A stretch of 64,000 nt of DNA, taken from NCBI GenBank assembly GCA_964016885.1, contig OZ024759.1, positions 28,954,001 to 29,018,000 of the forward strand, written 5' to 3'. Position 1 is the first letter of the stretch. Each line of letters begins with the position of its first letter. Shown in pieces: positions 3,597 through 63,140 of this stretch. Source of the DNA: Eledone cirrhosa (taxonomy: Eukaryota). The translations under genes and the position numbers were made by a program. Below the pieces are notes generated by a model that was not told the origin of the DNA, ran no database searches, and saw nothing but the letters and a program-made list of their open reading frames with translations.

Positions 3597-3797
3597 AGTT
3601 TGTCCCGGGTTCAATCGGGGGTAACCACAGTAAGTAAGGTACTCAATACAAAGCAGAGTATAAATATTTAATATAGAAAAGGCTTCTACAGGACTAGAAC
3701 TGTTTCATTTGGGAGAAATCATCGGGAAGTCCTGATGATTTCTTCCGAATGAAACAGTTCTAGTCCTGTAGAAGTCTTTTCTATATTAAATATATAA
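3597..3797. mobile_element. Palindromic HHR-bearing element (Penelope pLTR-like) in (TA)n
   Basis: Inverted arms centred ~3727. Plus strand: CTGATGA(3732-3738) TTTCTTCCGAAT GAAA CAG-ttctagtc-CTG TA GAAGTC. The minus copy has GACTTC CCGATGA. Left arm carries the tail. Confidence 0.75.
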
Positions 3798-4419
3798 ATA
3801 CATACATATATATATATATATATATATAGGAAAAGAGTCAGGACCCCGACGGCTGAGCTCCGGCCGTTTTGACAGCTAGATCCAAAAGCATATATATATA
3901 TATATATATATATATATATATACATACACACATATATACATATATATTACTAAGACATACGACCTTCCCTACTATATGTTCCCGTATATCTAACTATAAA
4001 TTTATATATATATATGTCTTCCCATCTCTCTCTCTCTCTCTCTCTCTCTCTCGCTCTCTCTCTCTCTCTCTCTCTCTCTCTCTCTTTAAGTGAAATCGGC
4101 TGTGTTATATACCACGGTATATGTTCCGGATCCCTGCGTTTTGAGTTCAAATCCGACCCGAGATCAACTTTGCCTTTCAGTGGAAGGTTTGCTGATCACT
4201 GCTTGCGCGCAAAACGTGAGATGGTTTCAGATCCCTTGTTGTGGGGGATCTCCTCTACCAGAAATCTCAGATACTGAGATACCATAGCTAGAGATACTGA
4301 AATTAACAAGGAAGACCTACAAACCTTGATGGGGAAATAAAAAGTGTTTGTTGGCATGAAATTGCGTTTGCTGTTTCGCCTAGGGGTGATTGATAAAGAT
4401 AAAATTGCCTTTCAATTGT

Positions 4420-5060
4420 TTTCAGACTTCTTAGACTTAGAAGCTCCCGCGTCTTGAGACCCATGAGGCAGCCAAAGTGCTCCAATGACAACGGCCAGTT
4501 GCATCTATCAATACATCGTTTCAACTTTTGTTGATGAGTTTCAAGTCTCTATCGATTGTCTGTCGCCAGTTCATCTTGGGATGTCATATATATGTGTGAG
4601 TTAGACTTAGGAGCTCCCGCGTCTTGAGACCCATGGGGCAGCCAAAGTGCTCCAATGACAACGGCCAGTTGCATCTATCAATACATCGTTTCAACTTTTG
4701 TTGATGAGTTTCAAGTCTCTATCGATTGTCTGCCGTCAGTTCATCTTCGGACGTCCTCTTCGCCTCTTTCCATGGAGGGCTTACAATGCAACACTTGAAT
4801 AGCATGTCTCTCACTTAGGAGACATGTGACGTGTCCCAAACCAGCCAAGTCGACGCTTGTACATGATGTTGGACATAGGTTGTTTGTGGGTTCGTTGACG
4901 GTCTTCAGTCCGATAAAAAACAAATACCACTCCTGTTCTTGGATTGATTATCGCTCTATCTCTCATTATCAGGAAGAAACCGGTTGTGTCCAGACCTGGA
5001 GAATGGTGGGTCCTGCCAAATTTAAAATGCCCAAGATAGCATCCCTACGATTCCATCAGA
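4420..5060 (-). pseudogene. RTE-clade LINE 3' fragment with internal ~180 bp tandem duplication
   Basis: Minus-strand translation LAGLGHV...GKRRRGRPKMN..QTIDRDLK, typical of the RTE C-terminus; ~4430-4580 is duplicated at ~4605-4750. Confidence 0.7.
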
Positions 5061-5109
5061 ATTTAAATACGCTTTCTTTTTTTTATGTATGTACACAGTG
5101 AGAGGCAAT

Positions 5110-5252
5110 GAAGGCGCATGGCTTAGTGGTTAGAGCATTGGGCTTGCAATCGAAAGGTTGTGAGTTCAATTCTTAGACCGGGTGATGTGTTGTTTCCTTG
5201 AGCAAGACACTTTATTTCACGTTGCTCCAGTTTACTCAGCTGTAGAAATGAG
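5110..5252 (+). mobile_element. tRNA-derived SINE family B (CORE-like)
   Basis: GGCGCATGGCTTAGTGGTTAGAGC (A box), GAGTTCAATTC (B box), CCTTGAGCAAGACACTTT; related copies at ~10330-10555(-), ~41760-41890(-), ~51265-51345, ~57345-57380. Confidence 0.75.
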
Positions 5253-5399
5253 ATGATAGGGGCTGGGTCCCTATCATTAAATCACCCACGACACCTCCAA
5301 CGAGATATACCTTGGAGGAGGCCAGCTAAACCTGCATAGGTGTGAGCTATCACACACACACACACACACACACACACACACACACACACACACACACAG

Positions 5400-59014: not shown

Positions 59015-59255
59015 TATATATATATATATATATATATATATATATATATGTATTATGTATAATATTGTGATTGGTTTGGCATAGGCTAAAAGCCTTTCAG
59101 GGAAGGAGGGGGGGGGGCTGCATCCTGTTGGTGGATTGGTTTACAATACACAGATGTGTATATATGTGTACGTGTGTGTGAAATGTAAACGTGAACAACA
59201 AACCACACAATGAAGAAATATATTAGTTCAACGCTTGATATAGTAGGTGAAGAGC

Positions 59256-59290
59256 CTTTACGTTTCGGAAACTAGTCCTTCATCAGAAAA
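59256..59290 (-). ncRNA. Ultra-minimal hammerhead
   Basis: Minus strand: TTTT CTGATGA AGGACTAGTTTCC GAAA CG TA AAG; stem III is the ACGT palindrome. Confidence 0.65.
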
Positions 59291-62200
59291 TAGAATGAGA
59301 GATAAAAGATGAAATAGAAAGATAGTGAAGTGAGACGAGGAAGGAACGGAAAAGATTTAAAGAAAAAGCACGAGTGTATTCAGTCATTCATTTTGGAAAA
59401 AAATGAATATGTATACACACACATATATATATATATATATGCGCAGGGGAATTTTGATGTGACTGGTTGTGGTGGAAATGGTGAACTATATAGGGGCCCC
59501 AGACCCAATATGTCCCGGGTCACATAAGTTTTCGGAGGCCCAATGCTTATCTAAACCTATGCTTGTCGTGGTTGTCTATGTAGGGAGCTCGGCCACAATA
59601 CATTGCCTTGTCGAGGGGCCCACTATCTCTAGCAGTTCAACGCTAATTTACATCTATATATGCTGTGCTTGTGTAAGGGGTAGGGACCGGGGGCATTGTT
59701 CTGACCTGAGAACCACTCGGTCTAGGTACCTAATATTTATCTATACTTATGAATGCTGTGGCTATGTATGTAGCGGGTGGGGGAACCGCCAGTATATTGC
59801 ATAATGCTGTAAAGACAGCCCTTCCTGAGATATGGCGGTGTCACTACCCAACTTATCAGTGGGGAGAAGATCAGGTATCAGTTTGTGGCTCCACGTAAAA
59901 TCCGCCACTAAATTGATCACTGCATCATACTAAAACCTCGGACTGACCAATCCGATGTTAATGAAAATTTGGGAGGCAGAGACTGCAGAAGCCCATCATA
60001 TATATATATATATATATATATATATATATATATATATATATATATATATATATATATCTTTGCCTTTCACTCTTACGGTGTCGATAAAATAAAGTACCAG
60101 TAATGTACTGGGTGATTGCTGGCCTTGTGCCAAAAGTAGAAACAATGTATATATATATATATATATATATATATATATATATATATATATATGTGTGTGT
60201 GTGTGTGTGTGTGTGTGTGTGTGTTCACGCCCCTCTACGTAAGACTCGAACGAGTCACTTGTAACCCCGCGTGAACGACGATGCGGCATGATTGATTTTA
60301 TTGCATTTGACCATACTGCAGTGTTTTTGGTGACCAGTCAGGAGCCTCGTTTGCCTTAAAAATGTGAGGGGGACAAACCGACATTTGTTGATTCTTAAAG
60401 GAGCATAAACAAACTACTTATAGTGCCTTTCCTGGCCTATCACATAAGTAAAGTTTTACGCTAATTAAATTTTATATATTCAAATGCAGTTCAAATATAA
60501 AAAAAATAAGCTTAAAAAGAATTTATTATATCAAATAAACAAAAAATAAAACAGACGTTTGAAAAAGTGGGGAGAAGGGGACTTGTCTCCTGGTACCCCC
60601 CTGAAACAAGGCCCGTGATGCCAGTCACCAACTTGCTAATTTCCTCAGACCAACAAAGACTTTTTAAAAATGGAGGCTTCTTTTTCTTTTTACTAGCGGC
60701 CATTACTTGTCTCGTCGTATCTACATCGCTGGGTTGTGAGAATTTTCTTGAGAGCCAACCAGGGTCTCCAAGACAAATTTTGCAAGGCGGTGATACAAGA
60801 CTCCTTTGGGGCCCGAATCAGTCAAAGATTTTTCTCAAAATGGATGTTGCATGGTTGCTGTGGGTCCTTCTTAGCTCTTGGACTCCGGAACAAATTACCG
60901 ACAAGACCCCCCCCCCTCCTCTCATAGGCCCTGGAGCCAACAATGTTGGTCATCCATTCCTCCATTTTTCTTGGTTCTATTCCTCCGGCTTTCTACTGTC
61001 TGAGTTAAAATTCCGCCCAGGTCAAAAAATTGCAGACTTGTCAACTCTCCCCGTCCGACGGGGAGATCTTCCACACACTTTGGGGTGGGTGAGAGATGTC
61101 TTATCTTGTGGAAATCGATATAGCTTTCATTATGCAAAAAATCTCCCCGTTTTGGGGCACTTTTTTTCATGGCACTCCTCGTTTGGGTTTTTAGGTTGGA
61201 AGGTCTGAAATTGACCGGGATCGATAAAATAAATACTGAGATCGATATCCCTAATTAAATTACTGGCCATGATTAAAGCAGAAACAATTATTATTACATA
61301 AACCAGTAAACTAAAAAAAAAAAAATTTAGATTTAAAAATTCTTTTTAACAGTTTACGTTAGCACAAGGTCTCCTCCCCCACCTCCAGACTTCATTATTA
61401 TACCACACTTCCACAAACCACAAAAACCGCACCAACCACTCACTACAATGGATCCTGCGCCTTATATCTCACACAGTCACACATAGACACTCGCACTATG
61501 TCACACACATACACTAAGTCAAAAGCACAATATCACATACACACACATTGACTCTTTACACACAGATTCTCTTACACAAACACACCTCTCTTCTCTATTT
61601 CACACACATACACACACACACCGTCTTGAAGGCCTCTCCCTTCAGACAATACCAATAAACGAATTAAAACACCATACGCACATACCATCTTTCTTAGAGG
61701 TCTCGTGGGGGTGGTGCTGTGAAATGGCATGGGGATGACCTCTCCCTACAGACGAAACCAATAAAATAATTAAAACGTTCATGCACTTCTCTTTAACACA
61801 CACACACACACACACACGCAGTCCTGTCACGCACATCACGTACACACTTCTATTACACACACACACACACTGTCTTCTCATGCACACATTTCTACACTCA
61901 TAATTTCTCTCACACACTTATGCACGCACGCACTCACACAAACACTGTTATGCACCCTTTCACACAAACGCACACACCTTACACAGTTACACACCCTTTT
62001 ACTCACGAACATACCTCTTACACTCCCACAGTCACATACATACACACACCTCATATACAGAGTCACACACACAAATACTTCTTACACACTGCCACACACA
62101 CACACACTAACACTAAATACCCCGTACACACACACTGCTACATGCACACAAACATACCTCTTACATACTGACACACACACATATCTCTTACACACACTGC

Positions 62201-62939
62201 CCCCCCCCCACAATCTCCCCTCTCCTCTGCCCTCCCCCATATACCAATCTCTTATGAACACCGTGAGAGTGATGTTTAGTGTTATCTCTGCTAACCGCCC
62301 ACCTACCCGACCCTACACCCGTTAATATCAGTTTGAAATCGGTGGTGGTGTGGATGATGTCGGCGGTGGTGGTGGTGGTGGTGGTGGTGTTGTTGACGAT
62401 GTCGGCGGCGTTGGTGGTATTGGGTCTCTTATCTCTCTTTAACATTCCTCCTATCACAACTGTAAACCTGCCCTCACTTACACCTCCACCACCTCCACCA
62501 CCACCACCACCAGAACCAATCATGGGACCACCGATATTGCCGTTACGTCAGACCACACACATACGCACGCACACACACAACGAGGTACCCCCCCCCCCCC
62601 TTTAGAGAAATGGTAGCCAAATCTCCCTCAAATCACACATCAGTCTTTCAAAAAGGAAAATACATTGTGTGCATATATATATATATATATATATATATAT
62701 ATATATATGTATATGTATGTGTGTAAATATGATAATAATGATGGCTGCCCGTTGCAAATGGTGGTGCATATGAAAAAGTGAGTCCTTCATCAGTGACCCT
62801 CCAACCGTCCCAGGCATTTCATCGCTTTAAGGGCCATATGCCTCAGGTTGGTGCGAACAACGGCTAAAAAAAGTCGTTGGGACACGTAAATAAAGGGGAC
62901 GTTAGTGTAACAAACAAAATATATATATATATACTGTAT

Positions 62940-63140
62940 AACGAAGGAATTGTGGTAAGGAACCAGATGGACCATAACGCACCAGAGTACTCAATACTTA
63001 GTGTAGTAGAGTGGGAAATAGGAAAAAGTATGACCCCGACGGCAGAGCTGAAGCCGTTTCGACGGCTATTTCTGGACTGGAATAGCCGTCGAAACGGCTT
63101 GATCTCTGCCGTCGGGGGTCATACTTTTCCCTATATACTG
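62940..63140. mobile_element. Palindromic HHR-half element (family of 13195)
   Basis: GTTTCGACGGCTATTTCTGG|ACTGGAATAGCCGTCGAAACGGC; TA-flanked. Confidence 0.75.

Follow-up and report, generated by a model that had tools for sequence, protein, structure and literature searches.

What kind of element leaves short palindromes with hammerhead ribozyme motifs in the genome of Eledone cirrhosa, and how are its two opposed arms made? The question is raised by one 64,000-nt stretch of the 3.0-Gb assembly (C20:28954001-29018000, hereafter the window), which has 38% GC and in which dinucleotide runs take up 29,532 of 64,000 bases. A preliminary description made from the letters alone had placed nine foldbacks here, joined at the 5′ side of the ribozyme, with one arm stopping at a TA-rich point and the other continuing for ∼60–90 nt. 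All nine were confirmed, with edges within ∼10 nt of those first given: the arms are joined 5′-to-5′, are 83–98% alike, and in every case one arm stops at a fixed internal TA-like site and its partner bears a tail of 60–86 nt. Each consists of two short copies, set back to back, of the end of a Hydra-type Penelope-like element (PLE) that bears the hammerhead, and is inserted in (TA)n; the pairing of one tail-ended with one short arm is a rule that holds across families and is new here.

The nine foldbacks fall into six families, A (13195, 41918 and 62940), B (55578), C (57490), D (41203 and 56453), E (58554) and F (3597), with tails of 78, ∼62, 86, 82, 84 and ∼63 nt respectively; E is related to D (67–70% alike). 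Copies selected by the tail only (30 loci out of 40 scored, for each of five families; copies are cited below by our locus numbers, L) likewise ended at constant points, one at the tail and one on the inner side, lay in (TA)n and varied in their inversion points. In long copies, five families were continuous upstream with reverse transcriptase (RT) and GIY-YIG frames: B in L072 and L084, C in L192 and L204, D in the C28 pair, F in the C17 pair, and A, for which 21 of 30 long loci match PLE proteins. Family E has no direct frame link and was placed by its likeness to D. The tail was seen to continue into the start of the open reading frame (ORF) in L120, L180 and L089. These frames and the shared layout support the earlier proposal of a common integration mechanism in dissimilar families and of a Penelope-like origin, and the arrangement matches the inverted truncated pseudo-long terminal repeat (pLTR) plus tail described for PLEs (Craig 2021, PMC8557442). 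As to the 5′ truncation that had been proposed with it, the inverted truncated copy stands; random truncation does not, as inner ends cluster at one site (see below).

The proteins of A, B, C and F, aligned against a CCHH-type PLE, have a CxCx5C linker and CxxC and CxH around a conserved E and N, and no CCHH; the linker of family D was seen in L401, and YRDD is present as well. SDKT and RLRWRA occur in B (L089), C (L120) and D (L180, L342), with RWR in place of RWK; DKT and RW[K/R]A were not seen contiguously for A, E and F. TA repeats follow the tail ends in 83/87 (A), 17/22 (B), 28/33 (C), 26/29 (D), 7/7 (E) and 17/34 (F) cases. Judged by motif comparison, then, the families carry the Hydra-clade features of Craig 2021. 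In the parts of that paper covered here (as for all published work cited by PMC number), the clade, which includes Hydra-1_Obim of Octopus bimaculoides, shares the C-terminal GIY-YIG without CCHH, CxCx5C, CxxC and CxH around E and N, DKT, RW[K/R]A, YRDD, a terminal-repeat hammerhead, (TA)n targeting and an inverted truncated copy with a tail at one end (PMC8557442). The supplement lists Hydra-1_Obim in (TA)n. In contrast to the clade as described, with tails of 30–40 nt, tails here are 60–86 nt, there are six or more families, and the two abundant ones have non-canonical cores; the listed Hydra-1_Obim hammerhead also differs from those here, and five short motifs from the element ends gave no match in the part of the supplement searched (PMC8557442). 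The layout, opposite-strand ribozyme pairs (PMC4209133) and Hydra elements in Octopus are thus already in print.

Several observations accompany this assignment. Pfam returned no family for any of the three Hydra-type fragments tested; in a protein atlas, the same kind of fragments fall in clusters with HTH_animal, GIY-YIG and RVT_1 shares of 0.91–0.95. No PLE frame is present among the 72 ORFs of the window, which are mostly repeat translations. A search for owners of the arms by GIY-YIG returned mostly CCHH-type PLEs, which are not the owners, and the family C arm in L120 merely neighbours such a match. That second PLE group is abundant in the genome (10,597 GIY-YIG candidates), with long CCHH-type frames including RT in L211, L212 and L213 (938, 1096 and 844 aa). 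The repeat beside an end tracks the last letters of the element, (CA)n following 13/34 tail ends of F and (TC)n 4/22 of B (L061-L090, L121-L150), which suggests stuttering at priming or later slippage and a possible source of new microsatellites. In one family C copy (L326), a short TATT match joins the sequence immediately following the hammerhead to the ORF start, and both priming sites are missing.

The pairing rule was measured in an unselected 864-kb sample, comprising 464 kb around and including the window plus 40 spread 10-kb pieces, taken regardless of these elements. Among its 183 family hits (59 of family A, 37 of family C) were 49 divergent pairs, all 49 within one family: 41 tail+short, one short+short, none tail+tail, and seven with an eroded or unclear end. 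A 50:50 expectation would give 41/42 with p=1e-11. Rescue of unpaired arms added three tail+short pairs and one short+short, leaving 29 tail-ended and 32 short-ended arms solo. A wider set of 220 pairs, which includes tail-selected loci, held 162 tail+short, four short+short, two tail+tail and five pairs between unrelated families. Kilobase-long assembled pairs were all tail+short (A twice, B, C, D, F twice). Loci L001-L030, from a whole-element search that favours the same joint, were excluded from pair counts and kept in motif censuses. The 464 kb near the window held 37 pairs and the 400 kb of spread pieces held 12; the latter density scales to roughly 90,000 pairs genome-wide (a rough 45,000–160,000, the sample not being length-weighted).

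Are such palindromes copied whole, or made anew at each insertion? Junctions were nearly all different, with 202 types among 212 same-family pairs, which argues that the palindrome is made at each insertion. Inner ends nevertheless gather: 33/59 in family A (only 2 go further), 10/37 in C and 2/6 in B lie within -7..+4 of one site. At some joints the sequence forms a short perfect palindrome (GCTAGC at 58739), and some hold iterated short templated inserts, CTCTTG repeats and A runs (C20 block 176651-176913 and others), which we take to resemble realign-and-copy synthesis or polymerase theta joining. Non-autonomous palindromic units, either like miniature inverted-repeat transposable elements (MITEs) or foldbacks copied whole, are refuted for the bulk of copies by this diversity, by asymmetric ends where symmetric terminal inverted repeats would be expected, and by continuity with RT and GIY-YIG frames. 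What speaks for them is the recurrence of the 13195 joint: when 30 loci were chosen from 3159 candidates for their likeness over the whole length, at least 24 had it. We attribute this recurrence to the hotspot of inner ends plus microhomology; as a general account such units are very improbable. No fixed target-site duplication was seen and short-read contigs and raw reads gave no empty allele; the (TA)n flanks would hide a duplication.

The hotspot itself bears a distinctive base. An extra G is a mark of reverse transcription up to the cap. Among arms ending exactly at the hotspot, G stands for the genomic T in 16/29 (A) and 9/13 (C) cases (p=4e-4; 0.002 once those that the partner arm could explain are removed); family A also has 11 C cases at that position, of which 5 correspond to the G of the partner arm seen from the opposite strand. 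Family F has TATAAA 27–30 nt upstream of the inner end in 11/11 listed long arms, across subfamilies and mostly with CCAAT further up, and G precedes 8 of 15 GGCTT starts, 5 of these being partner-explainable. Two other origins of the inner ends were considered. Hammerhead cleavage was rejected, for ends do not pile up at the cleavage site. A splice acceptor (a pyrimidine tract plus AG is present in A, C and F) is disfavoured, as the ends include AG and no shared upstream exon follows the G; in D. virilis, an intron ends at helix I (PMC4209133).

The reach of the two arms bears on how the second is made. The one explicit earlier proposal that we found in the literature searched is self-priming on an antisense template, published for head-to-head PLE palindromes (PMC3846280). 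One strand would be made first, or an antisense RNA would fold back (Arkhipova 2013); the second arm would then be copied from the first, with the endonuclease cutting at the inner TA site. Such a route naturally yields tail+short pairs; perfect palindromic joints such as that at 58739 and rare variants common to both arms also speak for it. Its copy must, however, lie within the tail arm, and with equal detection limits applied to both arms, 52 of 127 pairs had a short arm extending more than 5 nt further 5′, against 19 with the longer reach on the tail arm (p=1e-4). This speaks against the published model. (First counts of 23 vs 4 and 81 vs 19 were set aside for detection-limit bias.) The arms lack any overlap in 16 of 156 pairs, 32 short-ended arms are solo with no tail arm, and the position of the extra G (sense strand, 30 nt behind a TATA box) suggests that the template was sense. 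The copy statistics thus disfavour self-priming, and we consider it improbable.

The reading that we regard as probable is twin priming: a single capped RNA would be primed by both strands of the nicked target, with one strand starting from the tail end and its counterpart from the fixed inner site. The two priming sites would lie in the 5′ untranslated region (UTR), 130–280 nt from the cap, so both complementary DNAs (cDNAs) would usually run off at the RNA 5′ end, adding a C opposite the cap that is read as the extra G. The capped start would be the A of TTTAGTCC in family A, TTTAGTTT in family C, and a position 30 nt behind TATAAA in F. The cDNA 3′ ends would then anneal via 0–5 nt of microhomology or short inserts, and second-strand synthesis of each would be templated by the other. 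The kb-long tail+short pairs would arise when these two sites are used in a downstream pLTR, and a solo arm when one cDNA is lost. LINE-1 5′ inversions arise by twin priming, both target strands priming on one RNA and the cDNAs being joined by microhomology; their second priming site is random and the segments do not overlap. Unlike these, both sites are fixed here and the arms usually overlap into a palindrome.

That the two arms come from one source is supported by their likeness: arm–arm distance is smaller than the distance to other insertions in 91 of 107 pairs, clearly so in A, D, E and F, and arms share 45 rare variants in 7705 sites. These data would also fit a protein dimer carrying two RNAs from one source locus, in an asymmetric complex in which one subunit starts at the tail end and its partner at the inner site. 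A dimer is predicted for a purified PLE (PMC11167929), and two RNAs would account for tail+short pairs, shared variants, full overlap without strand displacement and the 5 of 220 pairs between unrelated families, though nesting in (TA)n explains the last as well. This alternative needs a cause for its asymmetry, does not predict the short arm ahead (52 vs 19), and with several co-existing families should give more mixed pairs than the 0 of 49 in the unselected sample; we hold it to be possible but unlikely.

Several points nevertheless weigh against twin priming on one RNA. We infer each of its steps. Palindromes can lose their centres after insertion, and gene conversion, or a pair of RNAs transcribed from one locus, could likewise account for the shared variants; B and C have no shared-variant signal, with arm–arm distances of 0.096 and 0.077 vs 0.104 and 0.068 between insertions. 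In the unselected part, the short arm is further in 13 and the tail arm in 4 of 28 pairs (p=0.049, weak alone), and the three rescued pairs could cut this to 13 vs 7. Sixty-one tail- or short-ended arms of that sample are solo, 5/220 pairs join unrelated families, and 9/37 family C arms pass the hotspot. The extra G is not clear in B, D and E, some 'free' G cases resemble mutated partner sequence, and canonical TATA was found in family F only. Finally, Frangieh found start sites alike on both strands, and the genomic rule needs one of each (PMC11167929).

That system, PAc (Poseidon of Anolis carolinensis; Frangieh 2024), is a close biochemical counterpart: the purified PLE nicks and extends both target strands, reverse transcription begins at two fixed sites that delimit the tail and lie close to the ORF start, downstream of the hammerhead, and ribozyme cleavage is dispensable in vitro (PMC11167929). 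Its start sites lie inside the ORF and have no homology to the cut DNA, whereas those here lie before the ATG and have short TA matches to the target, and the part of the paper covered gives no rule pairing two sites in one insertion. The Adineta vaga Penelope (PMC3846280) and Schistosoma PLEs (PMC4209133) resemble the present elements in their head-to-head inverted pLTRs, an optional tail on one, and a TATA plus initiator-like TCACT in the pLTR; the latter also have dual opposite-strand minimal hammerheads, with ribozyme pairs 100–700 bp apart (Cervera and de la Pena 2014, PMC4209133). Non-LTR retrozymes (bioRxiv 10.64898/2026.07.22.740005) are likewise short, non-coding, PLE-derived units with a type-I hammerhead. 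They form head-to-tail tandems, whereas here pairs are head-to-head, inner ends are not piled at the cleavage site, and same-strand adjacent hits number 3 vs 49 divergent pairs among the 183 hits, so that the tandem arrangement typical of retrozymes was not found. Craig 2021 calls the mechanism of PLE inverted copies with a tail undefined (PMC8557442). We did not find the pairing rule, a run-off site with extra G, or PLE twin priming in the literature searched; subscription papers (e.g. Arkhipova 2006, Schostak 2008) and supplements beyond Craig 2021 lay outside that scope and may hold related models.

Fold-back chimeras of assembly or library preparation could also produce palindromes, and among the short-read contigs and raw reads searched no record bridges a whole element. 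Yet arms differ by 2–17%, each family keeps the same ends on different chromosomes, and short-read data also contain their foldback joints: many of D/E occur at varying points in short-read contigs and in restriction site-associated DNA (RAD) reads, and raw reads of another sample carry the joint of 58668 to 58808 (21 reads, 2 starts). A 202-nt short-read contig bridges the right end of 56453–56861 into unique flank with 0 differences, although the best run may be the assembly's own sample. An artefact is therefore hardly credible.

The ribozymes fared less well than the layout. A scan for type-I hammerhead motifs gave 13 matches in the window vs 0–2 in each of 20 shuffles, canonical cores occur in B, D, E and F, and stem I shows compensatory changes between subfamilies (AGATTC/GAATCT vs GGCTTC/GAAGCC). 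Two divergent ribozymes per element, as the preliminary description had it, are found in four of the nine foldbacks only (41203, 55578, 56453 and 58554). The element at 57490 has a single core of variant CAGAAGA; in the element at 3597, stem I is interrupted by the joint and the core on the left is CCGATGA; and at 13195, 41918 and 62940 the joint falls inside the ribozyme (loop II or further 3′), neither arm having the CUGANGA half. In families D and E, the joint lies 60–90 nt upstream of the core. A variant core, CTGAGAA, is present in 32/37 long arms of family A, and CAGAAGA in 44/48 arms of family C, so that in both of the most abundant families a non-canonical core has become fixed (G8 to A in L049 and L033; U4 to A at 57646). 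The putative start site of family A is inside loop II, and its short RNA would therefore carry only half of the ribozyme. An Rfam search gave no match at gathering score, and no hammerhead family was among the best 150 of 482 matches (E≤10), which were microRNA-like and other chance matches.

An RNA combining ribozyme and long double-stranded RNA (dsRNA) had also been proposed, as a possible ADAR or siRNA substrate. In predicted folds, the stem I pair probability was 0.000 in 4/4 foldbacks with both arms and 0.00–0.34 in single arms, and the full hammerhead was not the minimum-energy fold of single arms. An RNA covering both arms is thus predicted to lock the ribozyme into a duplex, which would make ribozyme and long dsRNA alternatives rather than a combination. 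Low activity has been reported for such hammerhead motifs (PMC4209133).

Arms of the nine foldbacks and other family arms in the window. Arm identity is given with the first arm of each foldback.
Feature	Position	Strand	Hammerhead and remarks	Arm identity
Family F tail arm	3597..3731	-	core mutated (CCGATGA)	62/67
Family F short arm	3730..3796	+	core CTGATGA at 3732; 2 nt of stem I 5′ strand left	
Family A tail arm	13195..13332	-	3′ half only	56/58
Family A short arm	13332..13389	+	3′ half only	
Family D tail arm	41203..41432	-	full type-I, core at 41374	156/162
Family D short arm	41441..41626	+	full, core at 41520; 21 nt further 5′ than tail arm	
Family A short arm	41915..41974	-		30/36
Family A tail arm	41970..42075	+	begins within stem III, no core	
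Family B tail arm	55578..55714	-	core at 55711	56/60
Family B short arm	55715..55799	+	core at 55733	
Family D tail arm	56453..56693	-	core at 56635	153/159
Family D short arm	56689..56861	+	core at 56758	
Family C tail arm	57490..57635	-	ends in loop II, no core	58/59
Family C short arm	57636..57715	+	variant core CAGAAGA at 57646	
Family E short arm	58546..58738	-	core at 58653	185/192
Family E tail arm	58739..59014	+	core at 58823	
Family A tail arm	62940..63078	-	3′ half only; ends at the family's 5′ hotspot	50/53
Family A short arm	63083..63134	+		
Solo family A short-ended arm	3826..3878	-		
Family B tail arm	30117..30245	+	with small inverted remnant at 30108	
Solo family C short-ended arm	35125..35249	+		
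Solo family E short-ended arm	36122..36313	+	core at 36206	
Solo family B tail-ended arm	42585..42724	+	core at 42595	
Solo family C short-ended arm	55000..55428	-	continues into the element's 3′ UTR	
Solo family C tail-ended arm	56045..56160	-		

Further hammerhead-bearing families with like tail and short ends are present at 29790–30010 of the window (core at 29908), in the L406 foldback and in the C20 block 143398-144114, so that more than six families exist. Two other foldbacks of the window lie outside the six families and have no hammerhead core: 1821–2298 (164-nt arms, 98%, 150-nt spacer) and 43511–43686 (81-nt arms, 90%). What we label a SINE (short interspersed nuclear element)-like repeat also occurs in head-to-head foldbacks, with variable joints and symmetric ends (L288:5699-5964; L310:322-761; window 55890–56016); a fragment of its end lies in the family A 3′ UTR (L033, L049), and the repeat may use the same machinery as the PLE foldbacks. 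The window also holds a reading frame at 27968–28363 ending in a C2H2-like motif, which presumably corresponds to the end of RTE-type LINE (long interspersed nuclear element) proteins, and strongly strand-skewed long CCA/CTA-type trinucleotide arrays at 6300–8950 and 32800–34150.

The pairing rule, the greater extent of short arms and an added G at promoter spacing make the mechanism directly testable in the existing in vitro system and by 5′-end mapping. To gauge the share of these elements among local foldbacks, we scanned the 864 kb de novo by seeds (a blastn version was discarded for under-detection). Apart from microsatellites, 45 foldbacks were recovered (arms ≥ 35 bp, ≥ 82%); 28 belong to the six families, 24/34 near the window and 4/11 in the spread pieces, and five of the other 17 carry a hammerhead-like core. 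Octopus was reported to be exceptionally rich in near-perfect dsRNA loci and hyper-editing, loci that were not assigned to repeats and were left out of the repeat analysis, and lizard Penelope was found to be heavily edited (Porath 2017, PMC5625713). The PLE families described here are named candidates for those octopus dsRNA loci. Tentatively, we propose that PLEs integrate only by twin priming, from a fixed pair of sites on a single capped RNA, and that this makes both tail and inversion and supplies the second strand; its by-product in this genome, of the order of 100,000 miniature hairpins whose two most abundant families would have lost a canonical core, may be the main local source of dsRNA for cephalopod hyper-editing.

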